From the NCBI GenBank assembly GCA_963760915.1, contig CAVXEU010000005.1:256966-320965 (forward strand): a stretch of 64,000 nucleotides of DNA, read 5' to 3'. Each line of letters begins with the position of its first letter. Positions within the stretch are counted from its first letter, which is position 1. The notes under the pieces are model-generated. The model was not told the DNA's origin. It was given only the letters and a program-made list of their open reading frames with translations, and did not search any database. Of this stretch, positions 8,071-25,354 are shown in pieces. The position numbers and the translations under genes were made by a program. This stretch comes from an uncultured Bacteroidales bacterium (GTDB lineage: Bacteria; Bacteroidota; Bacteroidia; Bacteroidales; VadinHA17).

Positions 8071-10461
8071 CTATTCATATCGCAAGGATTCGACCGGATT
8101 TCTTGTTGCTGCCCTCCGGCTCTGATAAAATACAGTCATTAACGTTATTATGAGCACGATAAAGCCTGCAAATGCAAATACCCATAATCGCATTTCGATC
8201 CGGTACACAAAGTTCTGAAGCCATTTATGAACAGCATACCAGGCAACAGGACAGGCGATAATAAATGCAATTGCGACCCACTTAATAAATCCTGAATTCA
8301 ACATTAACAATACATCTGTTATTCCTGCTCCGTTAACTTTCCGTATGCCTATCTCCTTTGTTCGTCTTGCAATAAATACTGAGGTGACAGAGAATAGTCC
8401 GGAACAGATGATTAAAATTGTGAGAAGGGAAAAAAATCCGGTTATCTTAGCCTGCGAGAGCTCTTTGCTGTAAGCAGTATTATAAAGGTCGCTGATAAAT
8501 TCATAATTAAAAGGGTAATCAGGTAATTCCTCTTCCCAAACCTTTTTCAGATACGTTATAGCTTCATCTTTTCGGGCCAAATTGACTTTTACCAGAAAGC
8601 ATAGGTAGAATATTGGCTTTTGGAACAGAACATAAGGTTTTATCTCATGTTTCAGAGTATTGAAGTTAAAGTCACGTACAACACCCACAACATTTCCTCC
8701 GTAAAAAATATCGGGGGAGTCAAATTTTATTTTGAAAGGCTGGCCAATTGCTTCATCGGGACTCCATCCAAGCATCCTGACAGCTGTTTCATTCAATATG
8801 TAATCTTCTCTTTTTTTGTCTGGATTATAAATTGGAAAATTGTTGCCAGCAACCAGAGGAATATTGAAAAAATCAAGAAAATTATCCTCAACAGATAATA
8901 CATAAAGTTTTTTTTCCACAGTGTTATCCTTAATTCCCGGTGATTCGATACTGAAGGCATCGACTGTTTCACCGGAAGGTTCCTCTATTGAGGCTGTAAC
9001 ACTCTGTATAAGAGGGTTATGTAATGCTTTTATACGAAATGCGTTGTATTTAAACCTGACTTCCCAGTTTTGCTTTTTAAAAGCGAGAATATCACTGCTC
9101 ATATTCCCCATACTGTGGGATAGCATGAAACTATTCTGCCTGGCAATCGATATTGCTGCTACAAGAAGAATTATGGACATGCAAAATTGCCCGGTCATTA
9201 ATATGCCATAAGATGAAAGTCCAGGAATATTTTTATGGTGACTTTCCTTAAGTCCCGGCAATGATTTACGTATTGTTAATACATGGGAAATAACAGGCAG
9301 GCTGCCGGCTAATACCGGTAAAACTACTAATATTAATAAAACCAGCCAACCGGCAATTAAGTCAGAAATTCCGACTGGCAGAAGGCTGAAGCTGAAATAT
9401 GCCTTAGCCGGACCATCAGACAGATCGAGTAATATTACAGCAAATATGAGTGCCAGTGCAACACAAATAACTGATTCTGTCAATGACTGCACAATTATGA
9501 GCCTGGTTGTTGATCCTGTTATCCGCTGTATCTGTATCTGTTTCCTTAGTGTAAACAGTCTGGCTTTGTTGAGATTATAATAGTTTACCCACGAAACCAG
9601 AAGCATAACCAGTGCAACAATTATGAAAAGCCAGATAGCTGTAATATTACCGTTTGGTTCTGATTCCCTGTCTTTGTCCGAGTAGAGATGAATGTCTGTG
9701 ATCTTTTGAAGATAGGGTATGAAAGTGGTCTGATCCTTTTCCTGAACGACTTTCCTGATAAAGGAGGGGAATTGCGATAAAATTTTCTCAGGAGCAGTGT
9801 TTTGTTTTAACAGAAGATAAACATATGCCCATGAGGGTGATTCTTCGGGTCGTGCAAAAGAGGTCAGGATATCGAAGTGAATATGGGAATTTACAGGAGA
9901 ATCGTTCATAACTCCTTTAATTGTAAAAAGCACCATCCTGGTATCGTATTCGCCAGATAGCCAAATGTTTTGCCCAATCGGATCAGAGTTCCCGAAACAC
10001 TTGTGTGCAAGAGAAGACGAAATTACAGCCGAGTATGGTTCACTTAATACTTTCGCGGTATTACCTGAAAGCAGCCCGATATTAAAAACTTTAAAAAAAT
10101 TTGTATCGGTAGCAAATATCCTGTCCGAATAAAATTTATTCTCTCCTGCCTTAATTGCAGTATGGCGGTAGGGTTCAAGCCTGACCAGTTCTTCTATTTG
10201 CGGGAAATCAGCGGGTATCTGCCTTATCCATTTCTCCCAGCATCGGGCAAAATGAAGCCTGTTCCCGGAATTAATGGTCTCAAATGTCAGTCTGTATATA
10301 CGGTCGGAATCGGGCAGGTGCTTATCGTAGCTGAATTCGTTTTTAACCCATACTATAACAGCAAATGAACATGCAAAGCCAATCGTGAGACCTGTAATAT
10401 TCAATATGGTAAAGATCCTTAGCTTGAAAAGGTTCCGGAGTATGAGTTTTAAGTGGATCAT
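8071..10461 (-). CDS. Double-FtsX ABC-type permease (array paralog P3)
   Basis: 796 aa with the same architecture (RTKEIGIRKVNGAG). Tail FYQSRRAATRNPVESLRYE. Confidence 0.9.
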   Translation of the reverse strand: MIHLKLILRNLFKLRIFTILNITGLTIGFACSFAVIVWVKNEFSYDKHLPDSDRIYRLTFETINSGNRLHFARCWEKWIRQIPADFPQIEELVRLEPYRHTAIKAGENKFYSDRIFATDTNFFKVFNIGLLSGNTAKVLSEPYSAVISSSLAHKCFGNSDPIGQNIWLSGEYDTRMVLFTIKGVMNDSPVNSHIHFDILTSFARPEESPSWAYVYLLLKQNTAPEKILSQFPSFIRKVVQEKDQTTFIPYLQKITDIHLYSDKDRESEPNGNITAIWLFIIVALVMLLVSWVNYYNLNKARLFTLRKQIQIQRITGSTTRLIIVQSLTESVICVALALIFAVILLDLSDGPAKAYFSFSLLPVGISDLIAGWLVLLILVVLPVLAGSLPVISHVLTIRKSLPGLKESHHKNIPGLSSYGILMTGQFCMSIILLVAAISIARQNSFMLSHSMGNMSSDILAFKKQNWEVRFKYNAFRIKALHNPLIQSVTASIEEPSGETVDAFSIESPGIKDNTVEKKLYVLSVEDNFLDFFNIPLVAGNNFPIYNPDKKREDYILNETAVRMLGWSPDEAIGQPFKIKFDSPDIFYGGNVVGVVRDFNFNTLKHEIKPYVLFQKPIFYLCFLVKVNLARKDEAITYLKKVWEEELPDYPFNYEFISDLYNTAYSKELSQAKITGFFSLLTILIICSGLFSVTSVFIARRTKEIGIRKVNGAGITDVLLMLNSGFIKWVAIAFIIACPVAWYAVHKWLQNFVYRIEMRLWVFAFAGFIVLIITLMTVFYQSRRAATRNPVESLRYE

Positions 10462-15462: not shown

Positions 15463-17916
15463 CTATTCATATCTAAGGGCCTTCACCGGGTTCCTCGTCG
15501 CTGCCCGCCAGCTTTGCCAGCTAACAGTCAGCATGGCAAATAAAAGCGCCATAATTCCGGATAGAACAAAAACCCACCAGCTAAGCTCTGTTTTAAAAGA
15601 AAAATTCTGAAGCCATTTATTCATTGCGTACCATGCAACCGGTGTAGCAAAGACAAACGCAATCGCTATCCATTTCACGAAATCTTTGTTAAGGAGAACA
15701 ATAACTTCAATAATTGTTGCGCCATTTACTTTTCGAAGTCCTATTTCCTTGGTTCTTCTTTCATTCATACTCAACGAGAGCCCCAGAATCCCCAGAATAC
15801 ATAGAAAGACAGTGATAAAAGCAAACAGCAAAAGGAGATTCAGTGCTTTATGGTCAGATATATAATACCCGGCAATCCTGTCACTTAGAAATATGTATGG
15901 AAATACCTCGCCGGGAAAGACATTTTTCCATATTTTATCTATTTTATCCAGATCGCCTGGTAAAATTTCAGCTCTGTGGCTGCCGACAGTCTTTGAATTT
16001 GAAAGTTTTATATTCAAAGTCCTGAAACCGGCCGGATTATTATAAAAAACACAGGGTCTGATCTCATTGCGAAGTGAACCGGAATTAAAGTCCTCAACAA
16101 CACCCTTGATATATAGCCTGCTCGCGCCCGGACCTTGTATGATCTTACCAACAGCTTCATCTTTATTGAGGCCTATTTCAAACAGAAATTCCCTGTTTAA
16201 AATAATTGCACCGGCTGTATCACCGGAAGAAAAATTGCGTCCTGCTGCAAGTCTGAATGAATATAAATTCAGATATGAACTGTCGGCCATTTTAATCTCT
16301 GCATCAATTCTTTTTTCAGCATTATTGTTAAAATAGCTGAAGGAAGTCCATTGCTGGGATTCGGCTGGCACAACAGAACTAAAGCTTATCTCCTTTACAC
16401 CGGGAAAAGATAAAAGTTCACCTGATAACGCTGCCAGTTTTGAACCTGAATTTTCAGGCAATCTGGCGTAGATAATATTATCCGTGTTGTACCCCAGATC
16501 CTTGTGATTAATGTAATATATCTGCTTGACTATAAACAGAGTAGCAATTATAACTGCCTGTGCCACAACAAACTGAAGTATAACGCTTGCTTTTCCGAAA
16601 CTATTTCTGTTACCTGAGATGCCGGAATCACCGCTTTTTAACATTCTGGATAGCGATTTCAGGTTTAAATTATACGAGGAGAATACTACAGCCAGGAAAC
16701 CTCCGGAGAACAGAAGTGCCAGGACAAACAGAAACGCGGAAAAATTAATTTCCGGAATATATCCCCTGGGTATGTCTATGAAAGAATATAAATTTCCGAT
16801 TACAGAAAATACCAGCTGAACGCTCAACAGAAGAGCGAAGAAGTTTAACAGAAGCGATTCAGTAAGAAACTGAAAGAAAATTGTACGGGGATTGCTTCCA
16901 AGAATAAGCCTCAGCGCAATCTGCTTCTTCTGTTTGATTGTCTCTGCCAGAAAGAAGTTGCTGTAATTAAAACATGCGATCAGAAATATAAAACTGCCTA
17001 TAATGGTCAGTGCTAATAACAGGCCTCCGCTTACAGTACGGTTGTTGAAATTTCCGAAACTGCTTTCCTTGTGTACTTTCGACAGAGGCTGCAGCTTGAA
17101 CAATCGTCGCTCAGCATAATTACCATCAGCATGGGGGGAATAGATATCTTTGAACTTTTTCTCAATAGATTTAATGTCGCTTTTGTTATTCAGAACAACA
17201 TAACACTGAAAGTTGTCGGACAGGTTACCCCAGTCAGTGACTGATCCCGGATTAAGCTTTTCAGTATATGTTGGCAACGACAGAATAACTTTAAAAGGCA
17301 GGTCGGTATTTTCCGGGAAATCCTGGATAATACCAGCAATTGAAAATGTAGTTCCAAACAACCTGATATCTCTGCCTATTGGATCCTGGTTCTGGAAAAG
17401 TCTCTTTGCTGTTTCGTTGGTAATTACAGCAGTAAATGGTTTATCCAAAACCTGTTTACCTTCGCCATCAAGCCATTTTATACCACTTTTACCAAAATCA
17501 AAAACATCAAAAAATGAAGGTTCTGTGAATACGATGCCATCATCTAGCGAGAACGACTTTTCATCCTTGCTATCGCCTGAGAGGACGTTTATTTTCTGTC
17601 CATACACATATAACATGGATACAACATTTTGTATCTCAGGGATATTTCTTTTAAACTCACCCGGTAAAGCAGAAAAAACCCCGGTCCTGTATTCCAGTCC
17701 GCCTGTAGTGTAATCAAGTCCGGAAGTAACCCGTACAATCCTGAAGATATCTTTGCTTTGTGAATGAGAACTATCAAAACTCAATTCATAATTAATTTTA
17801 GTATAGATAATCAGACAACTGGTCAATCCTATTACCAGACCTGTGAATACCAGTAGATTTGATTTGAGATTTCGTGAAATCCTCCGTATCGCAATTTTTA
17901 GATTTTGTCCGTTCAT
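15463..17916 (-). CDS. Double-FtsX ABC-type permease (array paralog P6)
   Basis: 817 aa with the same architecture (RTKEIGLRKVNGAT). Tail SWQSWRAATRNPVKALRYE. Confidence 0.9.
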   Translation of the reverse strand: MNGQNLKIAIRRISRNLKSNLLVFTGLVIGLTSCLIIYTKINYELSFDSSHSQSKDIFRIVRVTSGLDYTTGGLEYRTGVFSALPGEFKRNIPEIQNVVSMLYVYGQKINVLSGDSKDEKSFSLDDGIVFTEPSFFDVFDFGKSGIKWLDGEGKQVLDKPFTAVITNETAKRLFQNQDPIGRDIRLFGTTFSIAGIIQDFPENTDLPFKVILSLPTYTEKLNPGSVTDWGNLSDNFQCYVVLNNKSDIKSIEKKFKDIYSPHADGNYAERRLFKLQPLSKVHKESSFGNFNNRTVSGGLLLALTIIGSFIFLIACFNYSNFFLAETIKQKKQIALRLILGSNPRTIFFQFLTESLLLNFFALLLSVQLVFSVIGNLYSFIDIPRGYIPEINFSAFLFVLALLFSGGFLAVVFSSYNLNLKSLSRMLKSGDSGISGNRNSFGKASVILQFVVAQAVIIATLFIVKQIYYINHKDLGYNTDNIIYARLPENSGSKLAALSGELLSFPGVKEISFSSVVPAESQQWTSFSYFNNNAEKRIDAEIKMADSSYLNLYSFRLAAGRNFSSGDTAGAIILNREFLFEIGLNKDEAVGKIIQGPGASRLYIKGVVEDFNSGSLRNEIRPCVFYNNPAGFRTLNIKLSNSKTVGSHRAEILPGDLDKIDKIWKNVFPGEVFPYIFLSDRIAGYYISDHKALNLLLLFAFITVFLCILGILGLSLSMNERRTKEIGLRKVNGATIIEVIVLLNKDFVKWIAIAFVFATPVAWYAMNKWLQNFSFKTELSWWVFVLSGIMALLFAMLTVSWQSWRAATRNPVKALRYE

Positions 17917-17998
17917 AGTTCAAATGTAAATTTGATCCTAAAATTTATTGTTTGTTATAAATCTGGTTTTCATGTAAAACATTACACAAAATATTTGA

Positions 17999-18226
17999 TT
18001 ATTCATATCTTAATGCCTCCACCGGGTTTCTTGTTGCTGCCATCAGGCTCTGCCAGGAACCACCCCTAAATCCCCCAGGGGGGACTTTGGATTCTGCTCT
18101 TAACCTCATCTTTAATTTTTCCCAGAGTAGTTTTTCACAAGTTGTCATGTTATTTCTAAGGATTTTGGCTGCCGAAAAAGTCTCAGGCAAGGCACCGTAA
18201 TACATTGATTTTTCTAATTCTTTCAT
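17999..18226 (-). CDS. 75-aa chimeric small ORF (DUF559-like N-terminal fragment fused to FtsX permease C-terminal tail); may be a pseudogene
   Basis: MKELEKSMYYGALPETFSAAKILRNNMTTCEKLLWEKLK.. matches the DUF559 N-terminal helix motif (A.xLRxxxTxxExxLWxxL). The C-terminus SWQSLMAATRNPVEALRYE equals the permease tail. Confidence 0.4.
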   Translation of the reverse strand: MKELEKSMYYGALPETFSAAKILRNNMTTCEKLLWEKLKMRLRAESKVPPGGFRGGSWQSLMAATRNPVEALRYE

Positions 18227-18281
18227 ATCTTTAAATTAGTACTAACCTGGTTAAGCCCCCCTTGGGGGGTTTGGGGATAGA

Positions 18282-18509
18282 TTACTCATACCTTAATGCC
18301 TCCACCGGGTTTCTTGTTGCTGCCATCAGGCTCTGCCAGGAACCACCCCTAAATCCCCCAGGGGGGACTTTGGATTCTGCTCTTAACCTCATCTTTAATT
18401 TTTCCCAGAGTAGTTTTTCACAAGTTGTCATGTTATTTCTAAGGATTTTGGCTGCCGAAAAAGTCTCGGGCAAGGCACCGTAATACATTGATTTTTCTAA
18501 TTCTTTCAT
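18282..18509 (-). CDS. 75-aa chimeric small ORF, copy 2 (identical protein)
   Basis: Identical translation to copy 1. Its 3 nucleotide differences from copy 1 are all synonymous. Confidence 0.4.
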   Translation of the reverse strand: MKELEKSMYYGALPETFSAAKILRNNMTTCEKLLWEKLKMRLRAESKVPPGGFRGGSWQSLMAATRNPVEALRYE

Positions 18510-18564
18510 ATCTTTAAATTATTACTAACCTGGTTAAGCCCCCCTTGGGGGGTTTGGGGGTTGA

Positions 18565-18792
18565 TTACTCATACCTTAATGCCTCCACCGGGTTTCTTGT
18601 TGCTGCCATCAGGCTCTGCCAGGAACCACCCCTAAATCCCCCAGGGGGGACTTTGGATTCTGCTCTTAACCTCATCTTTAATTTTTCCCAGAGTAGTTTT
18701 TCACAAGTTGTCATGTTATTTCTAAGGATTTTGGCTGCCGAAAAAGTCTCAGGCAAGGCACCGTAATACATTGATTTTTCTAATTCTTTCAT
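18565..18792 (-). CDS. 75-aa chimeric small ORF, copy 3 (identical protein)
   Basis: Identical translation to copies 1 and 2. Confidence 0.4.
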   Translation of the reverse strand: MKELEKSMYYGALPETFSAAKILRNNMTTCEKLLWEKLKMRLRAESKVPPGGFRGGSWQSLMAATRNPVEALRYE

Positions 18793-18847
18793 ATCTTTAA
18801 ATTAGTACTAACCTGGTTAAGCCCCCCTTGGGGGGTTTGGGGGTTGA

Positions 18848-18878
18848 TTATTCTTCAACCGGATTCCTTGTTGCTGCC
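18848..18878 (-). pseudogene. Vestigial permease 3' end (reads ..AATRNPVEE*), with a 12-nt internal deletion
   Basis: ttattcttcaaccggattccttgttgctgcc aligns with the last codons of the permease genes. Upstream of it (minus sense) there is no permease reading frame. Confidence 0.6.
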
Positions 18879-19021
18879 TTTATAATTCCTGTCATAAACA
18901 TTATTTGAAGTTATATTATGAGCATGAATTTCTAGATTTTATCATCACTCGAGATGATCCCGTCCACCAAATTTATGATACGGTTACCATATTTTCTTTC
19001 ACCCCCCGAAACACACTGGGG

Positions 19022-20023
19022 CTAATCCTCAAACCGTACATTTACATTTCCACCGCTTGAATGCATATAAACAGGAATTCCTCCATTATTCAAAGTTCCT
19101 TTTACACGATTCTTTTCAACTCTTCCGGAGAAATTACGTAGTTCAATATTAACCTTATCTGAGCTCAGATCCAGATCCAGTCCAAGGTCGTTCCCATTTT
19201 TGATAGTTGCATTGATTCCTCCCCCGCTGGATTGCAGGTATAATTCCTTGCTTAAGTTAGCAATATTAATACGGACCGGACCACCGCTGGATGTAGCTTT
19301 TACAGACCCTGCCTCCCCGGAAACGCTCACTCCGCCGCCGCTGCTGCCGGCATTCACATCACCGTGAATATTATTAAGGTGTACACCACCTCCGGAACTA
19401 TGGGCATAAACGCTGCCATGTGCATCATCCAAAGTGATACCCCCTCCGCTGGAACTCAAGTGAACATCACCGTTTTGATTATTTGTTGTTACTCCGCCAC
19501 CGGATGAACTTGCCGTTGTGGTTCCAGTGATATCTTCCAGTTGTACACCACCTCCGCTGCTCGAAAAATTATGAGTGCCTTTCACACCGGAAATTTTTAA
19601 TCCTCCTCCACTTGAGGATACATTGCATGACATTTCACGTGGGACTATAATTGTAAGTGAGATACCAGTATTCTGCCATGGATTTATACGTAACCTCCGT
19701 TCAATATTTGCAGTAATTACGGAACCATCTTTCCCGATATCCAAATTATAAATTCCCAGAACATCATCTACCGCCGGATCTGACGGAGATAAAAGCTTTC
19801 CGTTTTTTCTTATATATAACTCTACCACTACTTTATTCTGATCATGAGTTCTTACCTGTACTCCTCCGCCGGATGACTTTGCATTCAATGTACCGGGCTG
19901 ATCCAGATTGTATGTCTTTACTATGGTAGGAGTCCTGTTTTCCTGGGTAAATCCTTTACATGAAAGCAGTGTTACCAGCATTGCAATCATCGTGTACGTT
20001 TTTACATTTGTCTGAGTTTTCAT
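19022..20023 (-). CDS. DUF4097-like beta-helical repeat lipoprotein (putative adhesin family)
   Basis: Signal peptide plus lipobox (VTLLSCKG). About ten repeats of SSGGG[VI]x at an 18-residue period (SSSGGGVQLEDITGTTTA, SSSGGGVTTNNQNGDVHL, and so on). Confidence 0.7.
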   Translation of the reverse strand: MKTQTNVKTYTMIAMLVTLLSCKGFTQENRTPTIVKTYNLDQPGTLNAKSSGGGVQVRTHDQNKVVVELYIRKNGKLLSPSDPAVDDVLGIYNLDIGKDGSVITANIERRLRINPWQNTGISLTIIVPREMSCNVSSSGGGLKISGVKGTHNFSSSGGGVQLEDITGTTTASSSGGGVTTNNQNGDVHLSSSGGGITLDDAHGSVYAHSSGGGVHLNNIHGDVNAGSSGGGVSVSGEAGSVKATSSGGPVRINIANLSKELYLQSSGGGINATIKNGNDLGLDLDLSSDKVNIELRNFSGRVEKNRVKGTLNNGGIPVYMHSSGGNVNVRFED

Positions 20024-20192
20024 AGTAGAAATTTATTAAAGTTATGCCACTATTATTAATGAATTTGTTTATCTAAAATCAACCTTGAGTCCCTGCAGTA
20101 TTGTCTTTACAGCAAGCAGGTTGTGGGTCAGTTGTTCATTATTCAATCATATCTGAATACTTCAATACTCATGCTGTCCCGTCATTTCGGTG

Positions 20193-20420
20193 CTATTCAT
20201 ACCTCAGAGCCTCAACAGGGTTCCTCGTCGCTGCCATCAGGCTCTGCCAGGAACCACCCCTAAATCCCCCAGGGGGGACTTTGGATTCTGCTCTTAACCT
20301 CATCTTCAATTTTTCCCAGAGTAGTTTTTCACAAGTTGTCATGTTATTTCTAAGGATTTTGGCTGCCGAAAAAGTCTCGGGCAAGGCCCCGTAATACATT
20401 GATTTTTCTAATTCTTTCAT
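20193..20420 (-). CDS. 75-aa chimeric small ORF, copy 4 (identical protein)
   Basis: The translation is identical to copies 1-3 despite about 12 nucleotide differences from copy 1, all synonymous. Confidence 0.4.
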   Translation of the reverse strand: MKELEKSMYYGALPETFSAAKILRNNMTTCEKLLWEKLKMRLRAESKVPPGGFRGGSWQSLMAATRNPVEALRYE

Positions 20421-20475
20421 ATCCTTAAATTAGTACTAACCTGGATCAGCCCCCCTTGGGGGGTTTGGGGGTTGA
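20193..20475 (-). repeat. Solo fourth copy of the 283-bp unit, directly abutting the stop codon of permease P7
   Basis: Exactly 283 bp lie between the ORF stop at 20193 and the P7 stop at 20476. The body is near-identical to copies 1-3, but the terminal 43 nt match the adjacent P7 3' end instead. Confidence 0.95.
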
Positions 20476-22794
20476 TTACTCATACCTCAGAGCCTCAACA
20501 GGGTTCCTCGTCGCTGCCCACCAGCTTTGCATACTCACTGTAATTATGACAAATGAAACTGTGGCGATCCCGGCAAGTGCGAATATCCACCACCTGAGTT
20601 CAGTTCTGTAGGCAAAAGTCTGCAGCCATTTGTGCATAGCGTACCATGCAACAGGGGCGGCAATTAAAAATGAGACTGCAATTCTCTTAATGAAATCTTT
20701 ATTTAATATTGTTAACACTTCCGAGATACTGGCGCCGTTTATTTTCCTAATTCCAATCTCTTTTGACCTTGCAATACAATGCTGGAAAGTAAGACCGGTT
20801 ATTCCCATAAGGGTTAGTATAAGAGCCAGTATTGAAAAAATTGCTACTGCCAGACCCTGACGTTCTTCTTTCTGATACAGAGAGTTAAAAAACTGATCAT
20901 AAAAAGTGTAGTCAAACATATAGTCAGGTAGAATGGCATCCCAGGCGTCTTTAAGCTGTGCAAGCTGCTGTTCGGTATTTCCGGGTTCAATCCTCAGATT
21001 CAGGGCATTCATAAACCTGTTTTTAAATATTAAAGCAGCTGGCTCTCTTTCGGAATGAACAGAAGAAACCGAGAAGTCATTAACCACACCTATTACCTGC
21101 AATCCTCCATGTTCCTTAAATGTTTTGCCTTCAATGTCTGTCCAACCATATTTTTTCACAGCGGCCTGGTTAAGAATGCAGACTTTGTCTTCCTCGCCCT
21201 CGTGAAAGTTGCGTCCGGCAATAAGCTTTAATCCGAAAGTATTAACAAAATCCTCATCGACCTCCAGACAATTCAGCCAGAACTGGTTATTACTCTCCCC
21301 ACTTCCTGACCTCGAATTTATAAGTCCCGGTACCCCCATGCTGAGAGAGGCTGATTTAATGAATGGAAACCTGCCAAGTTCCTGTTTTACAAGATCTCCC
21401 TTTTCAAAGTTGCCCGGAAGAATTACCCTTACCAGGTGTTCTTTATCAAATCCCAGATCCGTCTGTTTTGCAAAAGTGATCTGCTTATATATTGTCAGGA
21501 CACATACCATTAATATAATAGATACAGTTGCCTGGAAAATTGACAGAACACTGTTTATTCCCTTTCCCTTTGTTTTAACTATATCAGCATGGAGAAATTT
21601 ACGAATATCAAATTTTGCATCCATGTACATGGGGGCAGCGGAAGTAATGAGGATAACCATTAAGATAATTGACGCAACAGCGAGGTTTGCAGGATATGAA
21701 TAGAGATTATGTAATTTCAAATCCCGTTCAAATAATTCCGAAGCAAATGGTAATACCTGTAATACAATGAATAATGCGATAATAAATCCCAGCAGAGTGC
21801 TCACGGTATTTTCAGTAATATGAAAAAGGGAGAGCTGACGGATTCCTGCCCCATGTGTTTTTTTAATTCCTGTTTCACGTAATCTTGAAAACTGGAGTGA
21901 GATTGTGAAGTTCACATGATTGAATATAGAAAGAAGAAGGATCAAAAGAGCAATAGCCGTAAACAGGTATATCATTGATGTGTTTGCCTGACGGTTCATA
22001 TTGTTGACAATACCTTTCTCGAAATAAATTTTTTTCAGGGATTGAATGATCAGTGGCCCTTCCGACCTGGTGGAGAAGTCTTTTATTTCACTGATCTTAT
22101 TGTTAAATTGCGCCGGGTCGTTGCCTTCTCTTAATTTTACATAGATGTTTGCAGGATACCAGATAATGCCATTATCGCCTGCCTGCATTATACGGGTTTT
22201 CTCACCTTCAATGTTGACGAAAAGGTCGGAATAGAAACTTGTATTATCGGGAAAATCCTCAATGACACCTGTTATCCTCGCACTTATGAATCCCCCGATA
22301 TCAATATTTCTGCCCAACGGACTTTCATCTCCGAACATATTTATGGCCAGTTTCTTTGATATAACTGCAGAGCCTGCCTCCGAAAAGGGTTCAGATGTAA
22401 ATCCTTCAATAAGCCTGAGATTGAATGTCCTGAAGAACTGGTTATCAGTTGAAATTGCATCTTTCAATTTTACATATTTATCTTCACAGGCAATATTAAA
22501 ATCCCATCCTGTAAGGTATTGTACAGGTGTTACGGATTCAATCTCCGGAAAGTCATTCCTGAGTTGTTGGGCGACTTTATAATTTATATTGCAGTCATTA
22601 TTATCCGATGCAATTAACCTGTAGATCCTCTTATAACCGTCAAAGTTATGATCAATTGTAGTTTCATTGAAAATAAACAGGGATATAATCAACACTACAG
22701 CAAATCCTATAGCAAATCCGCATATATTCAGTAACGAATAGACCCGGTTGTTTTTCAAGCCTCTTATGATTAGTTTTAAATTATAAAACAACAT
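20476..22794 (-). CDS. Double-FtsX ABC-type permease (array paralog P7)
   Basis: 772 aa with the same architecture (RSKEIGIRKINGAS). Tail SMQSWWAATRNPVEALRYE. Confidence 0.9.
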   Translation of the reverse strand: MLFYNLKLIIRGLKNNRVYSLLNICGFAIGFAVVLIISLFIFNETTIDHNFDGYKRIYRLIASDNNDCNINYKVAQQLRNDFPEIESVTPVQYLTGWDFNIACEDKYVKLKDAISTDNQFFRTFNLRLIEGFTSEPFSEAGSAVISKKLAINMFGDESPLGRNIDIGGFISARITGVIEDFPDNTSFYSDLFVNIEGEKTRIMQAGDNGIIWYPANIYVKLREGNDPAQFNNKISEIKDFSTRSEGPLIIQSLKKIYFEKGIVNNMNRQANTSMIYLFTAIALLILLLSIFNHVNFTISLQFSRLRETGIKKTHGAGIRQLSLFHITENTVSTLLGFIIALFIVLQVLPFASELFERDLKLHNLYSYPANLAVASIILMVILITSAAPMYMDAKFDIRKFLHADIVKTKGKGINSVLSIFQATVSIILMVCVLTIYKQITFAKQTDLGFDKEHLVRVILPGNFEKGDLVKQELGRFPFIKSASLSMGVPGLINSRSGSGESNNQFWLNCLEVDEDFVNTFGLKLIAGRNFHEGEEDKVCILNQAAVKKYGWTDIEGKTFKEHGGLQVIGVVNDFSVSSVHSEREPAALIFKNRFMNALNLRIEPGNTEQQLAQLKDAWDAILPDYMFDYTFYDQFFNSLYQKEERQGLAVAIFSILALILTLMGITGLTFQHCIARSKEIGIRKINGASISEVLTILNKDFIKRIAVSFLIAAPVAWYAMHKWLQTFAYRTELRWWIFALAGIATVSFVIITVSMQSWWAATRNPVEALRYE

Positions 22795-22940
22795 TTTTTT
22801 CGGTTTTTTAATTTGGGTTTATCCTTTTCTTCTTTAACAGTCCATATTATTATTAGTCCTTGCCAGATTGAAGTCAAAAACTTATATTTTTAATAAACTC
22901 TCATTTATTTATCATCTAATTTATTATCACACTATTAAGT

Positions 22941-22981
22941 CCCCCATTTGGGGTCCCGACAGCTATCGGGATAGGGGTTGA
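22941..22981 (-). repeat. Post-stop palindromic module related to the spacer of the 283-bp unit
   Basis: cccccatttgggg (22941-22953) plus a hairpin tcccga-cagcta-tcggga (22954-22971), then ggggttga next to the P8 stop. It shares ttaag.cccc..tgggg..ggggttgattaYtca with the unit spacers. Confidence 0.6.
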
Positions 22982-25354
22982 TTATTCATATCTCAGAGCC
23001 TCTACCGGATTCCTTAATGCTGATCTCCAGCTCAGCCAGCTTACAGTCAATAATGCAATTCCGAGAGCCAATACTCCTGAAAGGACAAATATCCACCAGC
23101 TTAAATCGGTTCGGTATGCAAAGTTTTCAAGCCACTTATGTATTGCATACCAGGCAAAAGGTAAAGCAATTAAAAAGGAGATGACGACCCATTTGATAAA
23201 GTCTTTATTAAGCATCACCATCAACTCAACTAATGTTGCTCCGTTCACCTTCCTGATCCCGATTTCTTTTATCCTGTTTTCACTTGAAATAACTGCCTGT
23301 CCAAACAATCCAAGGCATGCAATAAATACGGCAAGTGAACAAAAAAGATTGATCATTTTTGCAATACCATTATCGGCATCATATAATTTTTCGTAGTCCT
23401 GATCAAGAAAATGAGATTCAAATGGAATTCCGGGATTATATTCTATCCAGATTTTCTTAACTTTTGCAATTGTCCCGCTAATATCACCATTTATCTTAAA
23501 GAACAGTGCACTGAAATATGATTCTTTCGACTCATCCTGGTACAGATGAAAAACCTGGGGATTTATATTCTCATGCAGGGATTTAAAGTAGGTGTCTTTT
23601 ATTACCCCGACTATCCTGCCGCTCTTTCCATATAGCATAAATTCAGTTCCGATCGGATCGGACAGTCCCATTAATTTCATTGCTTTCTCATTTATGATAT
23701 AATCCTGTTTATCGCTGGCAAAATCTTTTGAGAAATTCCGTCCATATGAAAATTCTACACCGATCATATCAAAATAGTGATAGTCAATACGTGTAGTTTC
23801 CATCGCAATTAAATCGGTATTTCCCTGATTCTGCCACTCACCGTTAAGTTTCCACGAAAGACCTACTGTTCCGTTCACTTGTTGATACGGGAGACAATCT
23901 TTCAGACATACATCAGTAATCTCCGGAATTTGCAGCAAGGCATTTTTGACAGCTGCAATTTTTGTATAAATATTCCCTCTCAAAAATGTGTAGGCGATAT
24001 TATCTGTGCTAAAACCTAGTTTTTTTTCTCTTAAATAGTGCATTTGCTTATTGATACCAACTGCAACTATGATCATTATGACAGCAATTATGTTTTGAAA
24101 AATGACGAGACTTTTTAAAAGACCGGTTTTCTTTCTGGAATAACCATTAATAAGTTCTATGGCCTGCGAGTTTTTATAAACCAGTGAGGGATATACTGAG
24201 CAGAAAATCACAGTAAGCATAAATATGAAACCTGTCAGTATTAAAAAAGCCGGGGTGAATAACTCGTCACTTACCAGTTTATTCAGTGAACCAGGAAATG
24301 ACGGGCTTAAAAACCATAATAGCATCAACGTGAGGATGAATGCAAGTAAGACCAATGCCCCACTTTCAACGAAACTATTCCAAAAGATCATCGCCCCCCT
24401 TGCTCCAAATACTCTTTTTATTGAGGTGCTCTTATACCTTTTTATATGAAGCGATAATGTGAGGTTAATGTAATTTATACAGGCCAGGATCAGAATTAAA
24501 AGAGCAATAGTGCTGAAAATATACAGGTATCTGTAATCACCGGTTTTACCTAGTCTGTTATTGACTTTATAATCAAGATAGATGGCTTTTAAAGGCCTGA
24601 GAAGTACAGTAACTCCTCCGAATTTTACGTGAGGCATACCTTTTTCCTTAGCAACATAGTTAATTGCATTAGCGGCATCTTCGGAATTTGTGTTTTTTTT
24701 AAGTAATACGTATGTTCTGAAATTTGGATCTCCCCACTCCATTCCGCATAAATGAAATTCTTCAGCGAACTTTTGGGGAAGAATATAATCAAACTGAATA
24801 TGAGACTGAAGAGGAACATCCTCAATTAGTGCCAACACCTGAAGATTTCCTTCCCCCTCAATTTGTATTTCTTTATTTAAAGGATCAGATGACCCAAAAT
24901 ATCTTTTAGCAAATGACCGGGTAATAACTATGCTGTTTACCTGATCCAGAGCTTCTATGGGATCACCAGCAACGACTTTAAAGCTAAATATATCAAATAG
25001 TTGAGGGTCGGATGTAATCCCTTTCTCTTCAAAATACATATTGTCCTGATATTTAAATGCAAAACCCGGTGCATTTCTCAGGCGGACCGCCGACTGTATT
25101 GCAGCTACGTCGTTAATAATCGCAGGTGCCAGCGGAGCAGGAGTTCCAGCCATACTAAATTCGCCTTTATTGTTTTTGAAGTTTATCTGATAGATACGAT
25201 CAAAATTTACATTGAATTTATCATAGCAGGATTCATTGTAGACCCATGCTGCAATCAGCAGCACACTTGCCAGTCCAATACTTAATCCGAGAAGATTAAG
25301 TCCGGTGAAAAGTTTATATCGAAGGAGATTACGTATTATAATTTTTGCATTCAT
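22982..25354 (-). CDS. Double-FtsX ABC-type permease (array paralog P8, first gene of the array)
   Basis: 790 aa with the same architecture (RIKEIGIRKVNGAT). Tail SWLSWRSALRNPVEALRYE. Confidence 0.9.
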   Translation of the reverse strand: MNAKIIIRNLLRYKLFTGLNLLGLSIGLASVLLIAAWVYNESCYDKFNVNFDRIYQINFKNNKGEFSMAGTPAPLAPAIINDVAAIQSAVRLRNAPGFAFKYQDNMYFEEKGITSDPQLFDIFSFKVVAGDPIEALDQVNSIVITRSFAKRYFGSSDPLNKEIQIEGEGNLQVLALIEDVPLQSHIQFDYILPQKFAEEFHLCGMEWGDPNFRTYVLLKKNTNSEDAANAINYVAKEKGMPHVKFGGVTVLLRPLKAIYLDYKVNNRLGKTGDYRYLYIFSTIALLILILACINYINLTLSLHIKRYKSTSIKRVFGARGAMIFWNSFVESGALVLLAFILTLMLLWFLSPSFPGSLNKLVSDELFTPAFLILTGFIFMLTVIFCSVYPSLVYKNSQAIELINGYSRKKTGLLKSLVIFQNIIAVIMIIVAVGINKQMHYLREKKLGFSTDNIAYTFLRGNIYTKIAAVKNALLQIPEITDVCLKDCLPYQQVNGTVGLSWKLNGEWQNQGNTDLIAMETTRIDYHYFDMIGVEFSYGRNFSKDFASDKQDYIINEKAMKLMGLSDPIGTEFMLYGKSGRIVGVIKDTYFKSLHENINPQVFHLYQDESKESYFSALFFKINGDISGTIAKVKKIWIEYNPGIPFESHFLDQDYEKLYDADNGIAKMINLFCSLAVFIACLGLFGQAVISSENRIKEIGIRKVNGATLVELMVMLNKDFIKWVVISFLIALPFAWYAIHKWLENFAYRTDLSWWIFVLSGVLALGIALLTVSWLSWRSALRNPVEALRYE

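Follow-up and report, generated by a model that had tools for sequence, protein, structure and literature searches.

The 283-bp units and their setting

The DNA studied here is a 64,000-nt stretch (hereafter the window, at its full length) of contig CAVXEU010000005.1 from an uncultured Bacteroidales bacterium, and our subject is a 283-bp unit that occurs in it four times among genes for FtsX-type permeases. The minus strand of the region holds eight MacB_PCD/FtsX permease paralogues of ~770-820 aa, and a DUF4097 gene separates the two sites that the unit occupies. Repeats were detected with Tandem Repeats Finder, and similarity of the unit to the window was measured with BLASTN. The former found a single array, at 17995-18850 (period 283, 3.0 copies, 98% matches, 0 indels); the latter, with one unit as query, returned 17999-18276/81, 18282-18564, 18565-18847 and a dispersed fourth match at 20194-20475 with 94.7% identity. 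The initial annotation, made from the sequence alone, had placed tandem units at 17999-18847, as both programs confirm; the fourth copy lies at 20193-20475. It had also read 31 nt beyond the array as the start of a fourth unit, but 18848-18878 is the stop-proximal tail of a 17-codon permease relic (18848-18901).

Each unit carries on the minus strand an open reading frame (ORF) of 75 codons from ATG to stop, with the same translation in 4/4 copies. The annotated counts of variation also hold: among the four copies the 55-nt spacer has 6 variable sites and the ORF outside its tail has 3 (codons 11, 14 and 38), each a synonymous third position. Unit 4 has 9-11 additional tail differences from the array units, all silent, and the codon 14 variant is common to units 2 and 4, which indicates conversion between copies. 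Seven flanking permease genes have 3' ends that resemble the final 57 nt of each unit at 72-81% identity (BLASTN), which identifies the last 19 codons, as first proposed, as an FtsX-permease tail. C5-N(1-2)-G5 palindromes are confined to the four units in the 64-kb window (8 and 4 matches vs 0.01 and 0.04 expected), and when the unit is folded as a single strand its two ends base-pair with one another. Within the right palindrome lies CCTGG, a Vsr/Dcm site; any relevance of this is speculation. The units and their parts are:

18565..18847, minus strand: unit 3, 283 bp, in the order left inverted repeat, truncated DUF559 gene, right inverted repeat, 57-nt permease tail copy
18282..18564, minus strand: unit 2, 283 bp, in the array
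17999..18281, minus strand: unit 1, 283 bp, with the outermost right tail, which is unlike the inner tails at two silent sites
20193..20475, minus strand: unit 4, dispersed, abutting the stop of the permease gene at 20476-22794, with the same deletion endpoints
18815..18847, minus strand: left terminal inverted repeat of unit 3, TCAACCCCCAAACCCCCCAAGGGGGGCTTAACC, beginning at the first base past the preceding stop codon
18532-18564, 18249-18281 and 20443-20475, minus strand: left terminal inverted repeats of the other units
18622..18654, minus strand: right terminal inverted repeat of unit 3, AAAGTCCCCCCTGGGGGATTTAGGGGTGGTTCC, overlapping the last DUF559 codons and TAG
18339-18371, 18056-18088 and 20250-20282, minus strand: right terminal inverted repeats of the other units
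18677..18792, minus strand: DUF559 5' fragment of unit 3, ATG and codons 1-39 in the original frame, containing the junction AAAAATTAAA at 18677-18686
18632..18676, minus strand: DUF559 3' fragment of unit 3, last 14 codons DEVKSRIQSPPWGI and TAG, out of frame with the ATG, so that the TAG is skipped
18565..18621, minus strand: permease tail copy of unit 3, 57 nt, WQSLMAATRNPVEALRYE and stop, a direct repeat between units
18282-18338, 17999-18055 and 20193-20249, minus strand: permease tail copies of the other units

We consider it likely that a small selfish cassette, which carries a DUF559 gene and is seated at the 3' ends of FtsX-type permease genes, left the 283-bp unit behind as a non-autonomous remnant. 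Read in this way, the array is decayed mobile-element debris amplified by recombination.

Origin of the 75-codon frame by internal deletion

The exact 75-aa product occurs once, on one contig, among 5.8 billion protein clusters. Its first ~40 residues are matched at 80-94% identity by bona fide 132-aa proteins of the DUF559 family (PF04480). These 132-aa relatives all terminate in …SRI(Q/K)SPPWGI before the stop codon, an ending encoded as AAA AGT CCC CCC TGG GGG ATT TAG, with the same AAAGTCCCCCCTGGGGGATTTAG as the G/C-rich junction of the unit. The deletion was mapped by two local alignments of the unit to the closest full-length cassette (L132): unit positions 51-171 correspond to L132 cassette positions 49-169, and 162-257 to 398-493, with a 10-nt overlap (AAAAATTAAA/AAAAATTGAA) between the two alignments and 238 nt absent from the unit. 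By these alignments the window unit is a DUF559 cassette minus 238 bp, lost between two imperfect 10-nt direct repeats. As 238 is not divisible by three, the reading frame shifts past the DUF559 TAG, and the frame it enters happens to be that of the permease tail. The ORF is made up of DUF559 codons 1-39, then 17 out-of-frame codons, then the permease tail, which agrees with the tail consensus WQSWRAATRNPVEALRYE at 16/18 residues; it is a by-product of a frameshifting deletion, not a designed chimera.

The repeat at the junction reads AAAAATTGAA in unit 4 (20305-20314) and AAAAATTAAA in units 1-3 (18677-18686, 18394-18403, 18111-18120), and these are the two direct-repeat versions present in the intact L132 cassette. 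The codon 38 difference (A in units 1-3, G in unit 4) is the sole mismatch between the two 10-nt deletion repeats, which suggests either that two parent cassettes underwent the deletion independently or that a single event was resolved in alternative ways. If the deletions were independent, the other silent differences would have been inherited from intact genes under selection.

Assignment to PF04480 was taken as at least 20.6 bits, the gathering threshold, over the ~109-position domain including its catalytic core. The 75-aa product scored 14.4 bits (E 0.035) over profile positions 5-29 only, and is without the conserved core D60, E71, D73, H77 and K97 (alignment A1 numbering). It had no match in NCBIfam, PADLOC or PHROGs, nor to PF02687 (FtsX), the tail being only the last 18 codons and stop.

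Several points of the initial annotation are revised by these results. The DUF559-like N-terminus stands, as do the tail and the ORF itself, but the frame that had been called an intact chimera belongs to a cassette with a frameshifting internal deletion, and its G/C-rich junction, listed as a separate part, consists of the right terminal inverted repeat and, read out of frame, DUF559's own last codons (…SRIQSPPWGI and stop). The profile search that had been put forward as a check on the 75-aa product comes out below threshold for PF04480 and blank for PF02687. The identity of the four proteins, read as possible constraint, is accounted for by recent copying; the silent tail changes come from tail exchange, and equivalent derivatives elsewhere carry stops. 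The suggestion of a non-autonomous recombinational or mobile module riding on the permease 3' end came close to the evidence found.

Some public gene calls (P0002, P0017, P0018 and P0019) are short ORFs ending in …VPPGGFRGG(F)WQSWRAATRNPVEALRYE, which arise where reading continues through a cassette right end into the frame of the tail; in P0019 (L135 3185-3200, site 1) the read-through is caused by a C-run shorter by one base. For annotation purposes, a short "conserved" ORF that ends in …AATRNPVEALRYE or has …VPPGGFRGG… within it is an artefact of read-through from these cassettes.

The intact cassette

The intact cassette is about 465 bp long, or 522 bp including the tail, and holds a DUF559 gene of 132 codons, for a nuclease of Vsr-like, PD-(D/E)XK type. 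In every full-length FtsX-linked example the permease gene and its stop codon are followed immediately by the left repeat (TTTACCCCCAAACCCCCCAAGGGGGGCTT…), and the DUF559 ATG lies 53-55 nt past that stop. At the 3' side, the last DUF559 codons and TAG fall inside the right repeat (…AAGTCCCCCCTGGGGGATTTAGGGGTGG), which is followed by 4-6 nt and a second permease tail (18 codons and stop). The ends of the cassette are ~30-nt inverted repeats, each with a C-run/G-run hairpin. Among 37 distinct elements, comparison of the left end with the reverse complement of the element's own right end gave a mean score of 23.0, vs 15.1 for the right ends of other elements, 12.4 for the direct orientation and 6.5 for shuffled sequence. 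Non-palindromic hairpin loops are inverted between the two ends (TGAA/TTCA, TAAA/TTTA). End sequences differ among DUF559 lineages, yet the two ends of one element always match. By these comparisons the two cassette repeats qualify as true terminal inverted repeats.

To our knowledge DUF559 is a large family without an assigned function. The proteins of the intact cassettes (P0003, P0014, P0016, L100, L016 and L024) score 109-117.5 bits against PF04480 over profile positions 4-108, and the closest solved structure is 3hrl (E 5e-16 with a single sequence, 3e-21 with a profile), which is annotated only as an endonuclease-like protein. The ratio of nonsynonymous to synonymous substitution rates (dN/dS) is 0.05-0.26 among 13 intact DUF559 genes, all of exactly 132 codons; such strong purifying selection points to a functional nuclease. 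Against the Vsr profile TIGR00632 (threshold 97.85 bits) P0003 reached 16.7 bits (E 0.0067) and P0014 gave no match. The catalytic domain of the homing endonuclease I-Bth0305I (3r3p) had no sequence or profile match to the cassette protein at E <= 10; it was the second Foldseek match (E 0.073, TM 0.38/0.48) of an AlphaFold model that is itself poor (mean pLDDT 58, shallow alignment). A role as a defence-system or phage protein was considered and dropped: a methyl-directed restriction enzyme model and PHROGs of unknown function gave only weak, partial matches.

We also examined related DUF559 loci in a metagenome sample (n = 66 with enough flank, 47-82% identity). The left hairpin was present in 43/66 and a right hairpin over the stop codon in 33/66, and the permease tail lay upstream in just 12/66, from several divergent lineages. 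Among the non-FtsX relatives there was no flanking repeat above shuffled controls. The 64-kb window holds no intact DUF559 gene.

Permease tails as recombination substrates

Loci L004-L007 and L010 have two cassettes, and L008 has one at the orthologous locus. The gene tail of L008 is recombinant, with its 5' part matching the left tail of L004, its 3' part matching the middle tail of L004, and the crossover in a shared 17-nt stretch. Copy number thus changes by recombination between tails, and "non-genic" tail DNA becomes a functional gene end. Non-genic tails have 1.25-1.44 mismatches to the peptide consensus (n = 37-38 distinct) vs 1.2-1.9 for genic tails, and their entropies at the three codon positions (0.40/0.28/1.08 vs 0.44/0.30/1.24 for genic tails) show a third-position excess in both. 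This pattern would be expected from continual exchange with functional tails, not from decay. A classical target-site duplication was rejected, since the two tails at a locus usually differ (in L001 at 7/57 positions, all silent) and the tails show the codon-position signature of functional genes.

The permeases that host cassettes share merely 27-32% identity, while two sites of the same genome carry cassette DNA of 92-95% identity (L135) or, counted over the element portion, of about 98% (the window); hence the cassette moves independently of host-gene duplication. Taken together, these comparisons show both independence of the cassette from its host gene and recombination within the tails.

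Derivatives, arrays and miniature elements at other loci

None of the comparison loci was found to come from the genome of the window. Independent internal deletions that retain both ends and both tails were found in L133 (with different breakpoints), L134 (interior ~90 nt), L135, L085 (interior 51 nt) and L050. In the last of these, a full gene stands between two derivatives in a mixed array. L135 is a close counterpart of the window: the same 5'-deleted derivative follows two successive permeases, one of them as a single copy and the next as a tandem of at least 4 copies (period ~209), and in the DUF559 frame these copies show amino-acid changes and in-frame stop codons. Tandem cassettes are known from independent assemblies as pairs (L004-L007 and L010), as at least four copies (L135) and as three mixed units (L050/L149).

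A scan of the genome collection for the right-end motif hit at least 119 stretches, nearly all from Bacteroidales or Bacteroidota metagenome-assembled genomes (MAGs). Among the matches listed, about 60 of ~150 motif instances are miniature elements of ~75 nt, consisting of the left hairpin, a ~29-nt linker and the right hairpin, and these do not lie beside permease tails. Miniature elements were seen nested in an outer 14-16-nt inverted repeat in L131 (around 7108, minus strand), L112, L027, L109, L014 and about 50 more loci. The outer repeat varies between copies yet stays complementary, e.g. GAGGCTGTCTCAAAAG … CTTTTGAGACAGCCTC, and the whole forms a nested palindrome of ~140 nt. The nesting could reflect insertion into hairpin terminators, or a structured RNA; Rfam gave no family at the gathering threshold for ten loci with miniature elements.

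Tandem arrays of 69-nt and ~140-nt units with the right-end motif CCCCCTGGGGGATTTAGGGG occur in L013 (5600-6700), L042 (6300-7350), L045 (450-1120) and L095 (7580-7670; MAG CAWBYC01), and beside the L013 array lies a DUF559 gene 63% identical to P0014 (L013 6739-7131). In L207 (200-1000) and L173 (1000-1660), DUF559 genes stand amid other short hairpin-repeat arrays on both sides, a layout like that of REP/RAYT systems (see below) with a PD-(D/E)XK-type nuclease.

A proposed mechanism

The 57-bp tails that flank a cassette are direct repeats, and recombination between them would alter copy number, giving the three-unit array; unequal recombination or slippage between flanking tails would be the simplest route. 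The same process may delete neighbouring genes and carry a cassette with its tail between unrelated permease paralogues. By analogy with its family, the intact DUF559 nuclease would drive the spread in a homing-like manner, cutting empty tails or hairpin ends, and the truncated units would rely on an intact copy elsewhere or on host recombination.

Some observations weigh against this reading. The association with permease tails is lineage-specific (12/66), a trans-acting nuclease source for the window units is unproven, and the activity of the nuclease, its target and the excision product of the cassette are predictions only. We know of no 132-aa PD-(D/E)XK protein that acts as a transposase. 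Most of the comparison loci are metagenome assemblies, in which repeats are possibly collapsed or mis-joined. On either side of unit 4 the tails agree without a mismatch over one stretch of 37 nt, which a single simple crossover would not predict; later conversion may have produced it. The three-of-three synonymous changes (P about 0.01-0.02) leave a small opening for constraint on the ORF.

More tentatively, and with something short of even confidence, we propose that Bacteroidota DUF559 genes are the nucleases of an unrecognised class of mobile cassette, with hairpin-bearing terminal inverted repeats, abundant miniature derivatives and, in some lineages, a portable 57-bp target gene end with which the cassette hops among ~30% identical permeases. 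The portable gene end would supply homology on both sides, and hopping would reshuffle and delete permease genes. Full-text literature searches turned up no account of DUF559 genes that have inverted-repeat ends or stand beside FtsX permease genes; the cassette family looks like an undescribed variant of nuclease-driven selfish DNA. If true, this would be the first biological role for a large orphan family, a selfish-element role pointed to by the co-varying inverted repeats, the shed miniature derivatives and the duplicated host-gene end in some lineages. The 57-bp tails, as portable recombination sites, would also explain part of the rapid turnover of FtsX/MacB-type permease arrays in Bacteroidota, of which the window offers an example in the one permease and one ATPase gene deleted beside the array.

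Alternative explanations

The 75-aa chimera might instead be a functional small protein under purifying selection, for instance one whose DUF559 helices regulate or inhibit the intact nuclease. Four copies do give the same product, the substitutions outside the tail are 3/3 synonymous (nominal P 0.009-0.02), the spacer is more variable than the ORF (6/55 vs 3/171, Fisher P 0.007), and the intact gene's start codon is kept along with the region upstream of it. We nonetheless regard this as quite unlikely. The exact product is a singleton among the protein clusters, residues 40-56 are the DUF559 3' end in the wrong frame, and what remains of the domain scores below the Pfam threshold without the catalytic core. 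One of the silent sites is the deletion-repeat mismatch, and units 1-3 and unit 4 may have separate intact parents that were themselves selected; the silent tail differences stem from exchange with functional tails, and the L135 analogues carry in-frame stops and amino-acid changes. The units could alternatively be RNA or DNA structural signals of the permease operon (a terminator, an attenuator or an mRNA-stabilising hairpin) in which the DUF559 fragment is filler, given that a strong hairpin begins directly past each stop codon, that hairpin stems of relatives show compensatory changes and that a simple scan found terminator-like sites on the opposite strand. This, too, is unlikely: Rfam has no match in window 17000-21500 (E <= 1) or in the miniature elements, the fold stability of the whole element equals that of shuffles (z = -0.2), and no T-tract follows the hairpins on the coding strand. 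Moreover, the two hairpins are mutually inverted and co-vary by lineage, a DNA-level mark of element ends.

Units that are 98.6-99.3% identical and exceed short-read length invite the suspicion that the three-copy array or the junction of unit 4 was misassembled from the repeated 283-bp sequence, and homology to a related locus does end exactly at the repeat edge. An artefact is very improbable, however, considering that each unit has private single-nucleotide differences, that the outer tails are unlike the inner, that the flanks are unique and lie within a contig of 394,740 bp, and that tandem cassettes recur in independent assemblies (L004-L007, L010, L135, L050/L149). It is scarcely credible that the tail copies serve as a silent store from which permease C-termini are varied in a programmed way, on the analogy of pilin genes or shufflons. 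Tail DNA does enter the functional gene end by exchange, and a survey lists "DUF559 domain-containing protein" as enriched among predicted targets of programmed inversion (PMC9881135). But the tail peptide is nearly invariant (WQSWRAATRNPVEALRYE), so that exchange hardly alters the protein, the repeats are direct rather than inverted, and no recombinase gene is associated with the loci. The inverted repeats of DUF559 cassettes might themselves contribute to the enrichment among inversion targets.

Comparison with known systems

In T4-like phages, intronless homing is carried out by endonuclease genes (seg, mob) that lie between conserved genes and spread by repair that co-converts the flanks; the cassette would spread in a like way, but it is cellular, hops between paralogues, brings its own downstream homology arm and has inverted-repeat ends. 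Vsr, DUF559 and 3r3p (I-Bth0305I) have been grouped in one cluster (PMC3424549), and free-standing Vsr-like homing endonucleases and 'fractured gene' endonucleases have been reported (PMC2677866). With the Vsr-like (EDxHD) homing endonucleases the cassette has in common a small stand-alone nuclease gene of the Vsr/DUF559 cluster beside a conserved host-gene segment, a hairpin upstream of the start, and a patchy distribution of occupied and empty sites. Unlike them, it sits past a stop codon, not in an intron, intein or split gene; terminal inverted repeats and a 57-bp host tail in duplicate bound it, and it forms deletion derivatives as well as tandem arrays. It shows no detectable sequence similarity to 3r3p, and the fold match is weak and from a low-confidence model.

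Miniature inverted-repeat transposable elements (MITEs) share with the window units the terminal inverted repeats, the small size, the several copies, a gene broken by internal deletion and the existence of full-length relatives. They differ in that the units have no short identical target-site duplication, the flanks being 57-bp non-identical host gene ends; in that the parent cassette encodes a PD-(D/E)XK-type nuclease rather than a known transposase; and in that the window derivative is found in one genome only. Systems of repetitive extragenic palindromes and their associated tyrosine transposases (REP/RAYT; REPIN) likewise have an enzyme gene between inverted hairpin repeats and short hairpins of the same kind scattered or clustered in the same genomes. 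RAYTs, however, are HUH Y1 (IS200/IS605-like) transposases, whereas the only protein of the cassette is DUF559, and the window has no dispersed copies beyond its four units.

Integrative elements that supply a replacement 3' end, such as islands and phages targeting tRNA genes, also leave the host gene intact with its 3' end duplicated as a direct repeat, from which tandem arrays and excision follow naturally by repeat recombination. The cassette differs from these in having no integrase and in repeat copies that are not identical core sites, and its target is a set of 27-32% identical paralogues that share only the tail.

Neighbouring genes and history of the window locus

The features around the units are:

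18848..18901, minus strand: gutted permease gene of 17 codons, MFMTGIIK fused to AATRNPVEE and stop, forming the left tail of the array
18932..18994, minus strand: remnant of an ATP-binding cassette (ABC) transporter ATPase gene, last 20 codons and stop, the remainder deleted vs L216
19022..20023, minus strand: DUF4097 gene, between the cassette sites
20476..22794, minus strand: intact MacB_PCD/FtsX permease gene, 772 aa, its stop codon abutting unit 4
15463..17916, minus strand: intact permease gene, 817 aa, 82 nt downstream of the array
22925..22981, minus strand: degenerate hairpin mini-element, tcaacccctatcccgatagctgtcgggaccccaaatgggggactt, starting at the first base past the stop of the permease gene at 22982-25354

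The permease paralogues (window 3132-25354 and related loci) have 26-33% mutual identity, save single pairs at 40% and 69%, and only their last ~18 codons are conserved across paralogues. The DUF4097 gene meanwhile has orthologues of 88-90% identity in related metagenomic contigs; its named distant homologues (69-72%) are annotated as Mangrovibacterium or Prolixibacteraceae. Judged by these identities, the permease array has turned over much faster than the DUF4097 gene embedded in it.

A related locus, L216, is without the cassette element. Between window 20250-19022 and L216 4772-6002 the identity is 88% over 1231 nt, such that the right tail of unit 4, the spacer and DUF4097 are orthologous to an L216 permease tail, spacer and DUF4097, and the homology breaks off precisely where the tail begins on its 5' side. 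In L216, DUF4097 is followed downstream by a gene for an ABC ATPase and, after it, one for a permease of 774 aa. In the window the array is attached to the 17-codon permease relic, for whose MFMTGIIK the L216 counterpart is MFISGIVRA; the permease deletion joins …IIKA and the tail AATRNP… where the coding sequences of the two are alike. In all, three deletions beside cassette tails can be counted at the window locus.

Other hairpin elements follow permease stops, also in the related loci L216 and L220, which are free of the cassette. The mini-element at 22925-22981 opens with TCAACCCC, as in the units, and continues with the hairpin tcccgatagctgtcggga and then ccccaaatggggg. In L216 (9054-9135) an tcccgatagctatcggga hairpin stands directly behind a permease stop, with a partial duplicated tail next to it on the far side. 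In L220 the same hairpin-rich repeat of ~230 nt stands after two different permeases (2271-2500 and 8513-8745).

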